This document shows, piece after piece, positions 3,404-46,738 of a stretch of DNA of 46,738 nt; positions within the stretch are counted from its first letter, which is position 1; each line of letters begins with the position of its first letter. Both the position numbers and the translations under genes were made by a program. This DNA comes from a virus (taxonomy: Duplodnaviria; Heunggongvirae; Uroviricota; Caudoviricetes): IMG/VR virus record IMGVR_UViG_2563366826_000001. One strand, given 5' to 3'. The notes under the pieces are model-generated. The model worked only from the letters and a program-made list of their open reading frames with translations, was not told the origin of the DNA and did not search any database.

Positions 3404-3431
3404 TGCCGCCTCCGTGACATGTCACAGAGAT

Positions 3432-3770
3432 TTATATCATTAATTTTGTTTCGTGCCAGCCTTTGGTCACCCAGTATTGTGAGTCACCATTACACGGGCA
3501 TGAATTAACAGGAACTCTCTCGCCGCACTTACGGCAACGTTTTCTGCTAATCGATTTTATACGCCAGCGCACACGTGCATCATCCTGGCGGCTCAGTAAC
3601 GCTATGTACTCACCAAACTCGTAAGGCGCACGCCTGAAGCGGCGCGTGGCTCAGTTACGCTCCAGCATTTCAATTTCCTGAGCATCAAGTACAAGCTCCA
3701 GCTTACGCATACCGGATGATGCTTGCTTGGCTCTCTGATCGGCTTTGCGCTCTGCTGCTGATTTAGTCAT
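3432..3770 (-). pseudogene. Small zinc-ribbon-like ORF interrupted by an in-frame TGA (39 aa + TGA at 3651-3653 + 72 aa); pseudogene or opal read-through candidate
   Basis: Manual translation MTKSAAERKADQRAKQASSGMRKLELVLDAQEIEMLERN-TGA-ATRRF...CRKCGERVPVNSCPCNG...; single frame throughout. Confidence 0.35.
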
Positions 3771-4063
3771 TCTGCTTTTCCTGCATCAGGAGAAAGACAA
3801 TCATGGCGGCGCGGATACTTCCGGTATCTTTTTACGCGATATTACCCTTCAATGACACATACAAGAAGACAGCCATCAGCAGGAATGAGTGAGGAATCGA
3901 CAACCAGTAACGCTTAATTATCTATAGTGTCGTATTTGCTTCATAAAATATGGCGAATAACACAAAGCCCGCAGCAGCTCATTGTGCGGACTTTTCTTAT
4001 ACTTACTTCCTAGAGATAATTCTATGGAGGCATTAAATTAATGCTGTCATTGGTAATATCATA

Positions 4064-4928: not shown

Positions 4929-5231
4929 CTACAGTTCAGCAATACGCTTACTTCCATCCGAGATAACACCTTCGTAATATTCACGCTGCTCGTTGAGTTT
5001 TGATTTTGCTGCTTCCAGCTCAACGCGCAGCTTTCCTACCGTTAGCGCAATTTCCTCGTTCTCCTGGTCGCGGCGTTTGATGTATTGCTGGTTTCTTTCC
5101 CGCTCATCCAGCAGTTCCAGCACAATCGATGGTGTTACCAATTCATGGAAAAGGTCTGCGTCAAATCCCCAGTCGTCATGCATTGCCTGCTCTGCCGCTT
5201 CACGCAGTGCCTGAGAGTTAATTTCGCTCAC
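4929..5231 (-). CDS. Hypothetical coiled-coil protein (100 aa), possibly Ead/Ea22-like
   Basis: ORF overlapping the next gene by 4 nt; acidic/coiled-coil composition; family assignment tentative. Confidence 0.5.
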   Translation of the reverse strand: MSEINSQALREAAEQAMHDDWGFDADLFHELVTPSIVLELLDERERNQQYIKRRDQENEEIALTVGKLRVELEAAKSKLNEQREYYEGVISDGSKRIAEL

Positions 5232-5449
5232 TTCGAACCTCTCTGTTTACTGATAAGCTCCAGATCTTCCTGGCAACTTGCACAAGTCCGACAACCCTGA
5301 ACGACCAGGCGTCTTCGTTCATCTATCGGATCGCCACACTCACAACAATGAGTGGCAGATATAGCCTGGTGGTTCAGGCGGCGCATTTTTATTGCTGTGT
5401 TGCGCTGTAATTCTTCAATTTCTGATGCTGAATCAATGATGTCTGCCAT
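5228..5449 (-). CDS. TraR/DksA-family C4 zinc-finger protein (73 aa)
   Basis: CCECGDPI...CRTCASC four-cysteine motif with size typical of phage TraR-like proteins. Confidence 0.7.
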   Translation of the reverse strand: MADIIDSASEIEELQRNTAIKMRRLNHQAISATHCCECGDPIDERRRLVVQGCRTCASCQEDLELISKQRGSK

Positions 5450-5547
5450 CTTCCATTAATCCCTGAATTGTTGGTTAATACGCTTGAGGGTGAATGCGAA
5501 TAATAAAAAAGGAGCCTGTAGCTCCCTGATGATTTTGCTTTTCATGT

Positions 5548-5763
5548 TCATCGTTCCTTAAAGACGCCGTTTAACATGCCGATTGCCAGGCTTAAATGAG
5601 TCGGTGTGAATCCCATCAGCGTTACCGTTTCGCGGTGCTTCTTCAGTACGCTACGGCAAATGTCATCGACGTTTTTATCCGGAAACTGCTGTCTGGCTTT
5701 TTTGATTTCAGAATTAGCCTGACGGGCAATGCTGTGAAGGGCGTTATTATGTTCTATTGTCAT
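5548..5763 (-). CDS. Hypothetical protein (71 aa, MTIEHNNALHSIARQ...)
   Basis: ATG-initiated version of the 5548-5901 ORF; the longer form would overlap the upstream gene. Confidence 0.45.
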   Translation of the reverse strand: MTIEHNNALHSIARQANSEIKKARQQFPDKNVDDICRSVLKKHRETVTLMGFTPTHLSLAIGMLNGVFKER

Positions 5764-10920: not shown

Positions 10921-11613
10921 CTACCCATGCTTCCTATACGTCTGCGGCATGCTCCCAATAACCTTACCGAAGATGAACACCCGGTTCATCTCGTCTTTCT
11001 CGATCGGGTCCCACGGTGAGTAGCTCTTGTTATCAGAGATAACCAGCAGCTTATCCTTCATCATTTGCAGACGCTTTACATGGGCTGTGTCGTCGTACAG
11101 AAACGCATAGATACCATCACCGTCGAAAGATTTAACCGTGATATCAACGAACAGCAGATCACCTGGTTCGATCGTTCCTGACATGCTGTCACCACGCACG
11201 TTAATGATGCGGATATTTTCCGCCTTCCTGCCATCGAACATGTGACGAGCATCGTCAAACGAGTACTCAACCGAGCGTAGAACTTCTACAAACTCACGGT
11301 TGATTACACCCGGCCCGGCACTGACTTCTATATCAAGAACGTCAATTTTGAAGTATTTGGAATGGCTGACAGCAGGCTTCCCTGATTGTTGACCGTCATT
11401 TCTCATCGGGCCTATGCCTGATGAGAGCCATTCTGTTCGAACACCCAATGCATTAGCTATTTCAACAATTTTTGTTGAGCCGCGCGCGTTGCCGCTTGTC
11501 AGTCTCCAGATTGTGGGTTGAGCTACGCCAGACGCCTTTGCAAGAGCGCCTTGAGACATTCCAGATTGTTCCATCGCTAGGTTTAAGCGATCAGCAAGAG
11601 TTTCTTTTTTCAT
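10921..11613 (-). CDS. cI: CI-type prophage repressor (HTH + S24 LexA-like peptidase), about 230 aa from the ATG at 11613
   Basis: N-terminal HTH (LSQGALAKASGVAQPTIWRL), Ala-Gly cleavage site (SAGPG), GDSM serine and KR lysine motifs; divergent from cro; not lambda cI sequence. Confidence 0.85.
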   Translation of the reverse strand: MKKETLADRLNLAMEQSGMSQGALAKASGVAQPTIWRLTSGNARGSTKIVEIANALGVRTEWLSSGIGPMRNDGQQSGKPAVSHSKYFKIDVLDIEVSAGPGVINREFVEVLRSVEYSFDDARHMFDGRKAENIRIINVRGDSMSGTIEPGDLLFVDITVKSFDGDGIYAFLYDDTAHVKRLQMMKDKLLVISDNKSYSPWDPIEKDEMNRVFIFGKVIGSMPQTYRKHG

Positions 11614-11655
11614 AAGTTTTAATTTATACGCTTGCGTATTGATGGTCAAAACACG

Positions 11656-11715
11656 TTTTGCTATTGCTTGGGTTAATACGCATTGCTATTATTCATTCAT
11701 TGCAATACCAATAGG
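11656..11715. promoter_or_regulatory. Candidate oR operators with pRM/pR region (TTGCTATTG-type repeats)
   Basis: ttgctattgcttgg, cattgctattatt and caataccaatagg repeats between divergent cI and cro-like genes. Confidence 0.5.
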
Positions 11716-11723
11716 AATTGATA

Positions 11724-11951
11724 ATGACAAATCAAACCATTCAACTCGCAATCAGTATTACAGGTAGTCAAAAACGACTGGCAGATCTATGCGGTGTAGC
11801 CCAACCCACAGTTTGGCGTTGGCTACACGGTGGCGGAATTGATGCCCGCTATGTAATGAAAATTGTCTCAGCCACTGGTGGAAAGATTAAACCAGCAGAT
11901 ATTCGTCCCGACCTCGCACCATTGTTTAACGCGAGTAATTCTGCCGCCTAA
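11724..11951 (+). CDS. Cro-like HTH regulator (YdaS family), 75 aa
   Basis: MTNQTIQLAISITGSQKRLADLCGVAQPTVWRW; AGGAA RBS 6 nt upstream; the ORF-track start at 11718 is a TTG. Confidence 0.8.
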   Translation: MTNQTIQLAISITGSQKRLADLCGVAQPTVWRWLHGGGIDARYVMKIVSATGGKIKPADIRPDLAPLFNASNSAA

Positions 11952-11975
11952 ACTGCGGCGTTAACTGATAAGGCA

Positions 11976-12521
11976 ATGACTATGCAACCACTTACATACC
12001 AACAGACTAGCGGATTTAGCCCGACTGCGGTGATAAATCGTTCTCAAACAAAACAGGCGCCAGGCCACGAAAAAATCCGTGATGCCGTTCGCGCCTGGTC
12101 GGCTGCAGATAATCAGGATGTTGTTGCCGCACTCATTGTGAATGAGTATCGGGAGCAGGGCGGCGGCACCATCGATTTCCCTGATGATGTCAGTCGTGCA
12201 CGCCAGAAGCTGTTCCGCTTCCTCGATAACAAATTCGATTCTGAAAAATACCGAAATAACGTGCGTGAACTGACCCCGGCAATTCTGGCGGTACTACCGC
12301 TGGAATATCGCGGCCACCTGGTTGAGCAGGATAGCTACATGGCTCGGCTGGCTGAAATGGAAAAGGAACTCAGTGAGGCAAAACAGGCTGTCATTCTCAA
12401 CGCACCACGCCACCAGAAACTGAAGGAGATGAGTGAAGGCATTGTGTCGATGTTTCGTGTGGACCCGGATCTGGCTGGTCCACTGATGGCGATGGTCACC
12501 ACCATGCTGGGGGCAATATGA
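11976..12521 (+). CDS. YdaT-like protein in the cII position (181 aa), putative lysis-lysogeny regulator
   Basis: Position between cro-like gene and O; YdaT-like assignment from memory, tentative. Confidence 0.5.
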   Translation: MTMQPLTYQQTSGFSPTAVINRSQTKQAPGHEKIRDAVRAWSAADNQDVVAALIVNEYREQGGGTIDFPDDVSRARQKLFRFLDNKFDSEKYRNNVRELTPAILAVLPLEYRGHLVEQDSYMARLAEMEKELSEAKQAVILNAPRHQKLKEMSEGIVSMFRVDPDLAGPLMAMVTTMLGAI

Positions 12522-38850: not shown

Positions 38851-41800
38851 ATGGGTAAAGGCAGCAGTAAGGGGCATACCCCGCGCGAAGCGAAGGACAA
38901 CCTGAAGTCCACGCAGCTGCTGAGTGTGATCGATGCCATCAGCGAAGGGCCGGTTGAAGGTCCGGTGGATGGATTAAAAAGCGTGCTGCTGAACAGTACG
39001 CCGGTGCTGGACACTGAGGGGAATACCAACATCTCCGGTGTCACGGTGGTGTTCCGTGCCGGTGAGCAGGAGCAGACACCGCCGGAGGGGTTTGAATCCT
39101 CCGGCTCCGAGACGGTGCTGGGTACGGAAGTGAAATATGACACGCCGATCACCCGCACCATTACGTCTGCAAACATCGACCGTCTGCGCTTTACCTTCGG
39201 CGTGCAGGCACTGGTGGAAACCACCTCAAAGGGGGACCGGAATCCGTCGGAAGTCCGCCTGCTGGTTCAGATCCAGCGTAATGGTGGCTGGGTGACGGAA
39301 AAAGACATCACCATTAAGGGCAAAACCACCTCGCAGTATCTGGCCTCGGTGGTGGTGGGTAACCTGCCGCCGCGCCCGTTCAATATACGGATGCGCAGGA
39401 TGACGCCGGACAGCACCACAGACCAGCTGCAGAACAAAACACTCTGGTCGTCATACACCGAAATCATCGATGTGAAACAGTGCTACCCGAACACGGCACT
39501 GGTCGGCGTGCAGGTGGATTCGGAGCAGTTCGGCAGCCAGCAGGTGAGCCGTAATTATCATCTGCGCGGGCGCATTCTGCAGGTGCCGTCGAACTATAAC
39601 CCGCAGACGCGGCAATACAGCGGTATCTGGGACGGAACGTTTAAACCGGCATACAGCAACAACCCGGCCTGGTGTCTGTGGGATATGCTGACCCATCCGC
39701 GCTACGGCATGGGAAAACGTCTTGGTGCGGCGGACGTGGATAAATGGGCGCTGTATGTCATCGGCCAGTACTGCGACCAGTCAGTGCCGGACGGCTTTGG
39801 CGGCACGGAGCCGCGCATCACCTGTAATGCGTACCTGACCACACAGCGCAAGGCGTGGGATGTGCTCAGTGATTTCTGCTCGGCGATGCGCTGTATGCCG
39901 GTATGGAACGGGCAGACGCTGACGTTCGTGCAGGACCGACCATCAGATAAGGTGTGGACCTATAACCGCAGTAATGTGGTGATGCCGGATGATGGCGCGC
40001 CGTTCCGCTACAGCTTCAGCGCCCTGAAGGACCGCCATAATGCCGTTGAGGTGAACTGGATTGACCCGAATAACGGCTGGGAGACGGCGACAGAGCTTGT
40101 GGAGGACACGCAGGCCATTGCCCGTTACGGTCGTAACGTCACGAAGATGGATGCCTTTGGCTGTACCAGCCGGGGGCAGGCACATCGCGCCGGGCTGTGG
40201 CTGATTAAAACGGAGCTGCTGGAAACGCAGACCGTGGACTTCAGCGTGGGGGCTGAAGGGCTTCGCCATGTACCGGGCGATGTCATTGAAATCTGCGATG
40301 ATGACTATGCCGGTATCAGCACCGGCGGGCGCGTGCTGGCGGTGAACAGCCAGAGCCGGACGCTGACGCTCGACCGTGAAATCACGCTGCCATCCTCCGG
40401 TACCACGCTGATAAGCCTGGTTGACGGAAGTGGCAATCCGGTCAGCGTGGAGGTCCAGTCCGTCACCGACGGCGTGAAGGTAAAAGTGAGCCGTGTTCCT
40501 GACGGCGTTGCCGGATACAGCGTATGGGGGCTGAAGTTGCCGACGTTGCGCCAGCGCCTGTTCCGCTGTGTGAGTATCCGTGAGAACGATGACGGCACGT
40601 ATGCCATCACTGCCGTGCAGCATGTACCGGAAAAAGAAGCCATCGTGGATAACGGGGCGCACTTTGACGGCGACCAGAGCGGCACGGTGAATGGTGTCAC
40701 GCCGCCAGCGGTGCAGCACCTGACTGCCGAAGTCACCGCAGACAGCGGGGAGTATCAGATACTGGCCCGCTGGGACACGCCGAAGGTGGTGAAGGGCGTG
40801 AGCTTTATGCTTCGCCTGACCGTGGCAGCGGATGACGGCCGTGAGCGGCTGGTCAGCACGGCCCGGACGACGGAAACCACTTACCGCTTCACACAACTGG
40901 CTCTGGGGAACTACAGGCTGACAGTCCGGGCAGTAAATGCGTGGGGGCAGCAGGGCGATCCGGCGTCGGTATCGTTCCGGATTGCCGCACCGGCAGCGCC
41001 GTCGCGGATTGAGCTGACGCCGGGCTATTTTCAGATAACCGCCACGCCGCATCTTGCGGTTTATGACCCGACGGTACAGTTTGAGTTCTGGTTCTCGGAA
41101 AAACGGATTGCGGATATCAGGCAGGTTGAAACCAGCGCGCGTTATCTTGGTACGGCACTGTACTGGATAGCCGCCAGTATCAATATCAAACCGGGCCATG
41201 ATTATTATTTTTACGTTCGCAGTGTGAACACCGTTGGCAAATCGGCATTCGTGGAGGCTGTCGGTCAGCCGAGTGATGATGCATCAGGCTATCTGGATTT
41301 TTTCAAAGGCGAGATAGGGAAAACCCATCTGGCTCAGGAGCTGTGGACGCAGATTGATAACGGTCAGCTTGCGCCTGACCTGACTGAAATCAGGACGTCC
41401 ATAACGGATGTCAGCAATGAAATAACACAGACCGTCAATAAGAAACTGGAAGACCAGAGTGCAGCGATCCAGCAGATACAGAAGGTTCAGGTTGATACAA
41501 ATAATAACCTGAACAGCATGTGGGCAGTGAAGCTGCAGCAGATGCAGGACGGACGCCTTTATATTGCGGGTATCGGTGCCGGTATTGAGAACACCCCTGA
41601 CGGCATGCAGAGTCAGGTGCTGCTGGCAGCAGACAGGATTGCGATGATTAATCCTGCGAATGGCAACACAAAGCCGATGTTTGTTGGTCAGGGCGATCAG
41701 ATATTCATGAATGAAGTGTTCCTGAAACGCCTGACGGCCCCCACCATTACCAGCGGCGGTAATCCTCCGGCATTTTCCCTGACATCAGACGGGAGACTGA

Positions 41801-42348
41801 CGGCGAAAAATGTGGATATCAGTGGCAGTGTGAATGCGAACTCAGGAACGCTCAACAATGTCACGATTAACCAGAACTGTACGATTAAGGGCATGCTGGA
41901 GGCGACCCAGGTCAGAGGAGATTTCGTTAAAGCTGTATCAAAAGCCTTCCCGAAAAAAGTCGGTACGTGGGGTAACACGGAAACACCAAACGGTACGGTT
42001 ACAGTCACCATCAGCGATGATCATAACTTTGACCGCCAGATTATTATTCCGCCCATTATTTTTAACGGTATAGCGTATGACGATCCGGGGAGCGGAAATA
42101 ACCCAGGAGGCACGCGATACACGGGTTATGGTTTTGAAGTTCGCAAAAACGGCGTATTAATCGCATCCAGAGAAACTAAAGGGGCCATTCCCGGTAGTTA
42201 CAGTGCAGTTATTGATATGCCGAGTGGCAGGGGAAGCGTCACTCTGGAGTTTAAGATTTTCCAGAAAGGCAATCAGGGGGCAGGCAATATCACCGACTGT
42301 ACGGTGATTGTGACCAAAAAAGCCGCTTCCGGCATCAGTATTCGTTGA
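38851..42348 (+). CDS. J: Central tail fibre / host-specificity protein J (1165 aa) with divergent C-terminal receptor-binding region
   Basis: N-terminal about 1000 residues match lambda gpJ; last about 150 residues differ from lambda and the protein is 33 aa longer. Confidence 0.93.
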
Positions 42349-42368
42349 AATATTTATAACCCCAATAA

Positions 42369-42396
42369 AGGGCGTCAGGAATGACGCCTTTTTTAT
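42369..42396 (+). terminator. Rho-independent terminator after J
   Basis: ggcgtca-ggaa-tgacgcc hairpin followed by ttttttatt. Confidence 0.7.
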
Positions 42397-42418
42397 TGCA
42401 GAAAAGCGAGAGGTAATT

Positions 42419-43018
42419 ATGCGTAAACTTTATGCCGCCATTTTGTCCGCAGCCATCTGTCTGGCCGTATCCGGTGCGCCTGCATGGGCGTCTGAACATC
42501 AGTCCACGCTGAGCGCGGGCTATCTTCATGCCTCGACGAACGTTCCCGGCAGTGATGATCTGAACGGGATTAACGTGAAATACCGTTATGAGTTTACGGA
42601 CACACTGGGGCTGGAGACGTCGTTCAGCTATGCAGGAGACAAGAATCGCCAGCTGACCCGTTACAGCGATACCCGCTGGCATGAAGATTCCGTGCGTAAT
42701 CGCTGGTTCAGCGTGATGGCGGGGCCGTCTGTGCGCGTGAATGAATGGTTCAGCGCGTATGCGATGGCGGGTATGGCTTACAGCCGTGTGTCGACTTTCT
42801 CCGGGGATTATCTCCGCGTAACTGACAACAAGGGGAAAAAGCACGATGTGCTGACCGGAAGTGATGACGGTCGCCACAACAACACGTCTCTGGCGTGGGG
42901 AGCTGGCGTGCAGTTTAACCCGACCGAATCCGTGGCCATTGATGTCGCTTATGAAGGCTCCGGCAGTGGTGACTGGCGCACTGACGGGTTCATCGTGGGT
43001 GTTGGTTATAAATTCTGA
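42419..43018 (+). CDS. lom: Outer-membrane protein Lom (Ail/Lom family), 199 aa
   Basis: MRKLYAAILSAAICLAVSGAPAWASEHQSTLSAGYLHAST...GVGYKF matches lambda Lom. Confidence 0.93.
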   Translation: MRKLYAAILSAAICLAVSGAPAWASEHQSTLSAGYLHASTNVPGSDDLNGINVKYRYEFTDTLGLETSFSYAGDKNRQLTRYSDTRWHEDSVRNRWFSVMAGPSVRVNEWFSAYAMAGMAYSRVSTFSGDYLRVTDNKGKKHDVLTGSDDGRHNNTSLAWGAGVQFNPTESVAIDVAYEGSGSGDWRTDGFIVGVGYKF

Positions 43019-43072: not shown

Positions 43073-43082
43073 TGGGGTGAAT

Positions 43083-46000
43083 ATGGCAGTAAAAATTTCA
43101 GGTGTACTGAAAGACGGCACAGGAAAACCGGTACAGAACTGCACAATCCAGCTGAAAGCAAAACGTAACAGTACCACGGTGGTGGTGAACACGCTGGCAT
43201 CTGAAAATCCGGATGAAGCCGGGCGTTACAGTATGGACGTTGAGTACGGTCAGTACAGCGTTATTCTGTTGGTGGAAGGATTCCCGCCGTCACATGCCGG
43301 GACCATCACCGTGTATGAAGATTCCCGACCCGGTACGCTGAATGATTTTCTCGGTGCCATGACGGAGGATGATGCCCGTCCGGAGGCACTGCGCCGTTTT
43401 GAACTGATGGTGGAAGAGGTGGCGCGTAACGCGTCCGCGGTGGCACAGAACACGGCAGCCGCGAAGAAGTCAGCCAGCGATGCCGGCACATCAGCACGTG
43501 AGGCGGCAACCCATGCGACTGATGCTGCAGGCTCAGCACGCGCAGCCAGCACATCAGCCGGGCAGGCCGCGACGTCGGCTCAGTCAGCGTCTTCCAGCGC
43601 AGGAACGGCATCAACAAAGGCTACTGAAGCATCAAAAAGTGCTGCCGCTGCAGAGTCCTCAAAAAGCGCGGCAGCTACCAGTGCCGGTGCGGCGAAAACG
43701 TCAGAAACGAATGCGGCAGCGTCACAAAAATCTGCAGCCACTTCTGCATCCGCAGCGACCACAAAGGCGTCAGAAGCTGCCACCTCAGCCCGGGATGCGG
43801 CGGCCTCAAAAGAGGCAGCGAAATCATCAGAAACGAACGCATCATCAAGCGCCAGTAGTGCCGCTTCCTCGGCAACGGCGGCAGGAAATTCCGCGAAGGC
43901 GGCAAAGACGTCTGAGACGAACGCCAGGTCTTCTGAAACGGCAGCGGGACAGAGTGCCTCAGCTGCGGCAGGCTCAAAAACAGCGGCTGCATCATCTGCC
44001 AGTGCCGCCTCAACAAGTGCCGGGCAGGCCTCAGCCAGTGCCACCGCTGCCGGAAAGTCGGCAGAAAGTGCCGCCTCGTCTGCTTCAACAGCCACAACGA
44101 AGGCTGGCGAAGCCACTGAACAGGCCAGTGCAGCAGCGAGGTCTGCTTCCGCAGCGAAGACATCCGAGACGAACGCGAAAGCGTCGGAAACCAGCGCAGA
44201 ATCCTCAAAAACGGCTGCCGCATCGTCCGCCAGTTCGGCGGCTTCATCGGCATCATCGGCGTCAGCTTCAAAAGATGAGGCGACCAGACAGGCGTCAGCA
44301 GCGAAGGGCAGCGCCACGACAGCATCCACGAAGGCGACAGAGGCTGCTGGCAGTGCGACAGCGGCAGCACAGAGCAAAAGTACGGCAGAAACCGCGGCAA
44401 CGCGCGCCGAGACAGCGGCAAAACGGGCAGAGGATATTGCATCCGCTGTGGCGCTTGAGGATGCGAGCACGACGAAAAAGGGGATAGTACAGCTCAGTAG
44501 TGCGACTAACAGCACTTCCGAGTCACTGGCGGCAACACCAAAAGCCGTTAAGGCCGCGTATGACCTGGCTAACGGGAAATACACCGCACAGGATGCAACG
44601 ACAGCACAGAAAGGGATAATCCAGCTAAGCAGCGCGACCAACAGCACGTCTGAAACGCTTGCCGCGACACCAAAGGCAGTAAAAACAGCCTATGACAATG
44701 CTGAGAAACGTCTGCAGAAAGATCAGAACGGTGCGGATATCCCTGGCAAAGACACCTTTACGAAAAATATTGGTGCCTGCCGTGCCTTTGGTGGGTCAGT
44801 AAGCACAATAACAGGAAACTGGACGACTGCACAGTTTATCGAGTGGCTGGATTCTCAGGGAGCATTTAACCATCCCTACTGGATGTGCAAGGGTTCCTGG
44901 TCTTATGGCAATAATAAAATCATTACTGATACTGACTGCGGTAATATTCATCTCGCCGGAGCTGTCATTGAAGTAATGGGGATAAAGTCAGCGATGACGA
45001 TCCGCATTACCACACCGACCACCTCCACTGGTGGTGGAACAACTAACGCCCAGTTTACCTATATTAATCACGGAACATATTATTCACCTGGCTGGCGAAG
45101 GGACTATAACTCCAGAAATAAGCCAACGGCATCAGAGATCGGGGCGTTACCGTCAGGTGGAACAGCAGTATCATCAGTTAATCTGTCTTCAAAAGGTCGG
45201 GTAACCGCGCTGACAGACAATACGCAGGGGGCAACAGGTCTTGAGTTATACGAGGTGTATAACAACGGATATCCAACAGCGTATGGAAATATCATTCACC
45301 TGAAAGGGATGACAGCCGTTGGCGAAGGTGAGTTACTCATCGGCTGGAGTGGTACAAGCGGTGCTCATGCTCCGGCATTTATTCGTTCACGACGGGATAC
45401 GACCGACGCAAACTGGTCGCCGTGGGCGCAGCTTTACACCTCGGCTCATCCTCCTGCAGAGTTTTATCCAGTCGGTGCACCAATCCCGTGGCCATCAGAT
45501 ACCGTTCCGTCTGGCTATGCCCTGATGCAGGGGCAGACTTTTGACAAATCTGCATACCCGAAACTTGCAGCGGCTTATCCGTCAGGCGTGATCCCTGATA
45601 TGCGTGGCTGGACGATTAAGGGCAAACCTACCAGTGGTCGGGCCGTATTGTCTCAGGAACAGGACGGCATTAAATCGCATACCCACAGCGCCAGCGCATC
45701 CAGTACGGATTTGGGGACGAAAACCACATCGTCGTTTGATTACGGCACTAAATCCACGAATAACACTGGTGCGCATACCCATAGTTTAAGTGGCAGCACG
45801 AATGCAGCTGGTAATCACAGCCATAGAGATGGCCGTCGATTTAACCCCAGTGTTTTTAAAGATACTTATCAATATGGTTATACAAGCTCAGGTCAAAATA
45901 CCTGGGGTGTACAAGGCTCAGTAGGTATGTCTACGGGGTGGTTAGCTAATACCAGTACAGATGGTAATCATAGCCACTCACTGTCCGGCACAGCAGCATC

Positions 46001-46154
46001 TGCAGGTGCACACGCGCATACTGTCGGTATTGGTGCTCATACGCACTCCGTTGCGATTGGTTCACATGGACACACCATCACCGTTAACGCTGCTGGTAAC
46101 GCGGAAAACACCGTCAAAAACATCGCATTTAACTATATTGTGAGGCTTGCATAA
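43083..46154 (+). CDS. stf: Side tail fibre Stf (about 1023 aa) with expanded Ala/Ser/Thr-rich repeat shaft and His-rich C-terminal domain
   Basis: [50 protein letters not shown] matches lambda Stf N-terminus; C-terminus contains HxH motifs ([30 protein letters not shown]). Confidence 0.9.
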
Positions 46155-46738
46155 TGGCATTCAGAATGAGTGAACAACCACGGACCATAAAAATTTATAA
46201 TCTGCTGGCCGGAACTAATGAATTTATTGGTGAAGGTGATGCATATATTCCGCCTCATACAGGTCTGCCAGCAAACAGTACCGATATTGCACCGCCAGAT
46301 ATTCCGGCTGGCTTCGTGGCTGTTTTCAACAGTGATGAGTCATCGTGGCATCTCGTTGAAGATCATCGGGGTAAAACGGTTTATGACGTGGCTTCCGGCG
46401 ACGCGTTATTTATTTCTGAACTCGGTCCGTTACCGGAAAATGTTACCTGGTTATCGCCGGAAGGGGAGTTTCAGAAGTGGAACGGCACAGCCTGGGTGAA
46501 GGATACGGAAGCAGAAAAACTGTTCCGGATCCGGGAGGCGGAAGAAACAAAAAACAACCTGATGCAGGTAGCCAGTGAGCATATTGCGCCGCTTCAGGAT
46601 GCTGCAGATCTGGAAATTGCAACGGAGGAAGAAATCTCGTTGCTGGAAGCATGGAAAAAGTATCGGGTATTGCTGAACCGTGTTGATACATCAACTGCAC
46701 CGGATATTGAATGGCCAACAGGACCCATTATCGAATAG
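46154..46738 (+). CDS. tfa: Tail fibre assembly chaperone Tfa (194 aa)
   Basis: [54 protein letters not shown] matches lambda Tfa; stop codon is the last triplet of the window. Confidence 0.93.

Follow-up and report, generated by a model that had tools for sequence, protein, structure and literature searches.

The J gene of the lambda-like prophage analyzed here ends, with near certainty, in the classical h434 allele of the lambda-family receptor-binding domain, and judging from this sequence the receptor of the phage is very probably OmpC. OmpC is expected because the tip of J is ~97% identical to that of phage 434, which has OmpC as its receptor; a lambda given the 434 tail fiber gene likewise binds OmpC, and host specificity is set by the C-terminus of J (PMC3509688; PMC11101478). 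The initial annotation of this DNA had proposed a receptor other than LamB, and the comparison supports such a receptor, the tip being 38.6% identical to lambda J and 97.0% identical to J of the OmpC-using 434.

The window, as we call the whole 46,738-nucleotide stretch that was analyzed (IMG/VR record IMGVR_UViG_2563366826_000001), is an integrated lambda-like E. coli prophage. Its left end (1-2489) holds part of a ybhC-like gene of the host (pectinesterase family) and, after it, the gene for a lambda-type integrase with an arm-binding domain (1419-2489), and a near-identical prophage in strain ZH193 adjoins ybhB and bioA. We take the ybhB/bioA neighborhood, in the gal-bio region, to be the lambda attachment site. 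The ybhC-like gene in the window, together with ybhB and bioA beside the ZH193 prophage, suggests integration at this site. The immunity region (10921-12521) is unlike that of lambda; a gene for a CI-like repressor (HTH and S24 peptidase) on the minus strand (10921-11649) faces a divergent plus-strand gene with a YdaT_toxin domain (11976-12521).

J and the genes that follow it

The plus-strand ORF at 38851..42348, read from the ORF list and Pfam, encodes 1165 residues followed by a stop codon, and by its domain series and gene position it is a lambda-type J, the tip attachment protein or central tail fiber. Its Pfam matches are, in order, Phage-tail_3, FNIII-A_GpJ, Ig_J, Ig_J_second, Phage_Tail_Tip and Ig_GpJ_C, all six above their curated cut-offs, and they make up the full lambda-type series of hub, FNIII-A, two Ig/FNIII domains, tail-tip fiber and C-terminal Ig-like receptor-binding domain. 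Sequence matches in the PDB to lambda gpJ (8xcj/8xck, E 1.2e-107) and to A8 gpJ (9wca, E 2.1e-115) both reach the C-terminus of J. The ORF is intact, the gene order L-K-I-J-lom-stf-tfa is normal, and the near-identical ZH193 prophage is annotated likewise. ORFs that overlap J in other frames or on the opposite strand, such as 41697-42011 (minus strand) and 41834-42073, were treated as by-products of the coding strand.

J was aligned with the J proteins of lambda (1132 aa), 434 (1137 aa) and mEp332 (1165 aa). That J is like lambda gpJ over most of its length, as first annotated, proved correct: residues 1-811 (38851..41283, plus strand), which form the hub and two FNIII/Ig domains, are 97.8% identical to lambda J (793/811), 97.7% to 434 J and 97.5% to mEp332 J. 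The DNA of this part is 93-99% identical to lambda, save for one 100-nt bin (40751-40850) at 85%. The divergence that had been placed at about residue 1000 starts at residue 1001 (nt 41851), directly after a conserved motif. The annotation had, however, described one divergence point, and while the C-terminal break stands, it is not the only one, as a second replaced block lies at residues 812-931 (41284..41643, plus strand). J is, as had been noted, 33 residues longer than lambda J, but 28 of these 33 extra residues fall in the 812-931 block and the C-terminal domain accounts for a net gain of five only.

Residues 812-931 correspond to the alpha-helical shaft and the top of the central straight fiber, with shaft and fiber domain names taken from the lambda structure paper (PMC11101478). 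The block is 36.7% identical to lambda (44/120, with 28 gap columns), 37.5% to 434 and 99.2% to mEp332, and its DNA identity to lambda is 18-61%. This "long shaft" variant is 28 aa longer than the shaft of lambda and 434, and 65 phage records, Stx2 phages and mEp460-type phages among them, have the block at 95% identity or more. A third shaft variant, ~60% identical, occurs in phi330 and Stx1a phages. The long shaft showed no clear heptad register when a/d hydrophobicity was simply counted. A single-sequence AlphaFold2 model of J 806-1165, with a mean pLDDT of 42.3, weakly suggested helices at J 812-877.

Between the two replaced blocks, residues 932-1000 (41644..41850, plus strand), the lower part of the central straight fiber, are conserved, with 85.5% identity to lambda (59/69), 84.1% to 434 and 98.6% to mEp332, and with DNA 83-89% identical to lambda. 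This segment probably serves as a recombination bridge. At its end the close DNA match to lambda breaks off: 41651-41850 is 83-88% identical, the sequence from 41851 on 39-59%, and the G+C content changes from ~0.60 before 41851 to 0.46-0.51 after it. So sharp a step in identity within an otherwise 98%-identical gene marks a mosaic junction, not chance drift.

The 434-like DNA forms one stretch of ~1.1 kb (41851-42960) that comprises the J tip, an intergenic hairpin and lom. From 41851 through lom the DNA is 95-99% identical to 434, except in the bin 42328-42426 around the J-lom intergenic region (90%), and about 35-62% identical to lambda; beyond ~42960 lambda and 434 DNA are again similar to each other. 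The h434 tip would have been acquired through homologous recombination between lambdoid phages, with a left junction at nt 41851, just past the conserved motif, and 434-like DNA entering as far as ~42960, through lom. Between J and lom, we read from the sequence a terminator-like hairpin, GGCGTCA-GGAA-TGACGCC, followed by the T-run TTTTTTATT (42371..42398, plus strand). The same stem was found on the minus strand by a scan, and the 434 record has an annotated terminator in the corresponding position. The lom gene (42419..43018, plus strand) encodes an Ail/Lom outer-membrane beta-barrel protein (Pfam Ail_Lom, E 4.9e-119) of the 434-type allele, 97.0% identical to 434 Lom and 45.5% identical to lambda Lom.

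Further downstream, stf (43077..46154, plus strand; Pfam phage_tail_N, Phage_fiber_2 and Collar) encodes a side tail fiber of 1025 aa and is intact, unlike in laboratory lambda. The N-terminus of Stf is 80% identical to lambda orf-401, and over its last ~230 aa the protein shares 71% of residues with lambda orf-314. The Ala/Ser-rich center of stf (~43400-44500) shows an AT skew of up to 0.41 and long spurious ORFs in the other frames and on the opposite strand; no tandem repeats were found in this Ala/Ser-rich part. The last gene, tfa (46154..46738, plus strand), encodes a tail fiber assembly chaperone of 194 aa (Pfam Caudo_TAP, E 1.3e-43) that is 93.8% identical to lambda Tfa. Adsorption probably uses both J and the side fiber, because the prophage encodes an intact Ur-lambda-like Stf together with Tfa. 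Ur-lambda Stf binds OmpC (PMC12617516), and the Stf tip of the window is 71% identical to that of lambda.

The receptor-binding tip and its expected receptor

Residues 1001-1165 and the stop codon (41851..42348, plus strand) make up a receptor-binding domain of the 434 type, assigned by Pfam and by identity to 434 J. The Pfam family Ig_GpJ_C (Tip attachment protein J, C-terminal receptor binding domain) matches J 1029-1164 with E 4.2e-25 and 88.8 bits, against a cut-off of 26.2. The tip is identical to that of mEp332 J (165/165, 100%). With the 434 J tip it shares 160/165 residues (97.0%) in an ungapped alignment, and length and indel pattern also agree. Five residues set it apart from 434, namely N1047D, R1127G, I1136V, Q1138H and G1143R (the window residue stands before the position, the 434 residue after it); the 12 nucleotide differences amount to six synonymous and five non-synonymous codon changes. 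A sequenced lambda h434 imm21 hybrid has 434-type J and lom as well. Over the last 232 aa of J, nine phage records reach 99% identity or more and 74 reach 90% or more, and phages at 99.6% over this length have E. coli K-12 MG1655 or ECOR13 as their recorded propagation host.

Other assignments of the tip were considered. The LamB-type tip of lambda (J residues 973-1132) was rejected at 38.6% identity (66/171, with 17 gap columns; 38.8% by BLASTP). The A8/phi330 allele class, taken as at least 80% identity, was also rejected, the last 165-200 residues being ~44% identical by BLASTP to A8 gpJ of PDB 9wca, the entry from which the A8 tip sequence was recovered. With the same last 165-200 residues, BLASTP against J of HK97, phi80 and N15 gave nothing better than E = 0.46. 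Nor is J in the window followed by a cor gene; lom stands in that place. The alignment with J of lambda, 434, HK97 and phi80 that had been suggested for the C-terminus thus returned a 434-type tip, with no detectable similarity to HK97 or phi80, and identity to lambda J lay far below 90%, being 38.6% for residues 1001-1165 and 47.8% when the last 200 are taken.

That the divergent C-terminus still binds LamB is very hard to credit: the two tips share a fold family (Pfam Ig_GpJ_C), and OmpC, like LamB, is a trimeric porin, but the tip is only 38.6% identical to lambda, has indels in all three predicted loop regions, and in its near-identical 434 form gives use of OmpC and not LamB (PMC3509688).

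OmpC also serves some of the lambdoid mEp phages as receptor (PMC11893012, citing Hernandez-Sanchez 2008). For the phages with an identical tip (mEp332, the PhiR phages and phiSTEC1575-Stx2k), no published receptor was found in the literature searched.

The lambda J trimer is made up of a pair of FNIII domains, an alpha-helical shaft, the central straight fiber, which is a beta-sheet prism, and an Ig-like receptor-binding domain. Its trigger begins when the tip loops enter the porin, upon which the three domain bases open, the prism twists, the shaft flips and the tube opens (PMC11101478). Since the window J has all the parts of lambda J, by analogy the same series of events most likely takes place on an OmpC trimer. 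The central tail fiber would be built from three J chains, and the loops of the three Ig-like C-terminal domains would dock into the trimeric porin, here OmpC in place of LamB. Docking would spread the domains and a twist would move up the beta-prism fiber, after which the alpha-helical shaft would flip and the tail tube open for DNA ejection.

In AlphaFold3 models, two hairpins of the phi330 tip contact OmpC, and a third loop does so in the 434 tip only (PMC12502783). By alignment, the counterparts of these predicted contact loops in the window are residues 1077-1087 (an insertion relative to lambda), 1141-1143 and 1036-1045, and indels relative to the lambda tip occur in all three regions. 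The loop positions were taken solely from the alignment, since the single-sequence model was poor (pLDDT 42). As mapped in this way, loops 1036-1045 and 1077-1087, the latter the long hairpin, are identical to 434, and loop 1141-1143 reads NQG in the window vs NQR in 434; N1047D adjoins the first predicted loop and G1143R falls within a predicted loop. When 14 distinct 434-type tips, taken from phage records and IMG/VR, were compared, variation was concentrated at 1006-1009, 1028-1047, 1074-1078 and 1127-1143, and no variable position fell in 1079-1126 or 1144-1165. This clustering in the aligned tips is compatible with fine-tuning of the contact surface, though it is no proof of it.

Since the J tips A8 and 1A2 are not alike in the OmpC variants they recognize (PMC11338833), the window phage may accept another range of these variants than 434 does. 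More tentatively, the clusters at 1028-1047, 1074-1078 and 1127-1143 might be adaptive and track polymorphic OmpC loops, such that the window allele (N1047, R1127, I1136, Q1138, G1143) sees OmpC variants other than those seen by 434, and the reassorting shafts might tune fiber length or the ejection trigger; we regard this as possible but doubtful.

A rival reading is that the tip is 434-like but that its five substitutions have shifted its specificity, either to a porin other than OmpC, for instance OmpF, or to some OmpC variant that 434 does not recognize. Residue 1047 beside the predicted contact loops, residue 1143 inside them and the same three clusters of variable positions would fit such a shift, as would the few point mutations by which lambda J reaches OmpF (PMC11101478) and the differing OmpC variants of A8 and 1A2 (PMC11338833). 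We nevertheless consider it improbable, as the tip is 97% identical to 434 without indels, the long hairpin 1077-1087 is the same, and six synonymous beside five non-synonymous codons look like ordinary allelic variation.

A defective relic, in which the tip has no present function, is less probable still. Many E. coli genomes do carry several J copies, and a 771-nt query, which spans also conserved fiber sequence and the start of lom, matched a median of two and up to 13 places per genome. The window, however, has long intact ORFs from the lambda-type integrase (1419-2489) through tfa; none of J, lom, stf and tfa is truncated, and the late region matches isolated, plaque-forming phages such as PhiR42_1, Kati and mEp332 at 96-98% identity across 92-98% of its length. 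The reading we favor remains a 434-type tip directed at OmpC.

Exchange of modules and prevalence of tip types

From IMG/VR, 80 loci with the conserved middle of J were recovered, 61 of them with a complete distal J, in a sample biased to close relatives of the window J. Among these 61 loci the tip is of the 434 type in 25, of the A8/phi330 type in 14 and of a third type in 22; the lambda type was seen in none. Long and short shafts were each found with all three tip types, and a 434-type lom likewise follows all three. The idea that lom and the J tip form a receptor-matched pair was rejected on this last count. The free combinations of shaft, tip and lom indicate that these parts are exchanged independently. 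The distal part of J therefore consists of at least two independently exchanged modules, shaft and tip, which is relevant to the engineering of J chimeras for DNA delivery. The third tip type, at 5198-5677 of IMG/VR locus L016 and in 21 other loci, shares 65% identity with the A8/phi330 type and may or may not be the engineered "1A2" tip of PMC11338833.

The same types were sought in complete E. coli genomes. The 434-type tip (498 nt, at least 80% coverage) is present in 2092 of the 5426 genomes (~39%), with 563 records at least 99% identical. At 90% identity or more, the A8/phi330 type gave ~1676 records and the third type, the commonest, ~3254. The lambda LamB-type tip (3425-3904 of locus L001) was found in 96/5426 at 80% coverage or more; all 98 matching genomes were at least 99% identical to it, and the five listed among these matches are all laboratory K-12, B or DE3 strains. 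With the lambda tip this rare in natural E. coli, to differ from lambda is the normal state of J. Prophages with a 434-type tip would be better annotated as OmpC-type than as LamB-type. The h434 tip and its arrangement are already known and common, and as the tip is already present residue for residue in sequenced phages, it carries little weight as a discovery.

Comparison with known phages

The complex of lambda gpJ with LamB (PDB 8XCJ/8XCK; PMC11101478) shares with the window the domain family and the J architecture, and the trigger is probably the same; it differs in its receptor, LamB, and in its tip (38.6%). The A8 gpJ chimera (PDB 9wca/9wcb) and the phi330 tip belong to the same domain family and are both OmpC-dependent but represent a separate allele class, ~44% identical to the window tip. 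In this class the loops at 1036-1045 are shorter than in the window, and the hairpin at 1141-1143 is not the same. Phage phi330 carries the A8-type tip, and its use of OmpC was established with a delta-ompC strain and complementation (PMC12502783), that of A8 by delivery assays (PMC11338833).

Closer to the window are 434 J and the classical lambda h434 hybrids (OL657226, OM418627), which have the same tip (160/165), the same lom allele (97.0%) and the same left junction relative to lambda. Phage 434 keeps the short shaft of lambda in a J of 1137 aa, whereas the shaft of the window is 28 aa longer, and the two tips differ at five residues. Its Stf also has 437 aa vs 1025 aa in the window.

The closest relatives are mEp332, PhiR34_1, PhiR42_1, PhiR68_2, ev243, Kati and phiSTEC1575-Stx2k, in which the last 232 aa of J are 99.6% identical to those of the window. 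Phages of this group differ from the window only slightly, by scattered substitutions in J and by their Stf tips (76% to mEp332). Phage mEp332 has an identical tip (100%), the same long shaft and a J of equal length (1165 aa), and in PhiR42_1 the DNA of the late region is 97.4% identical over 98%.
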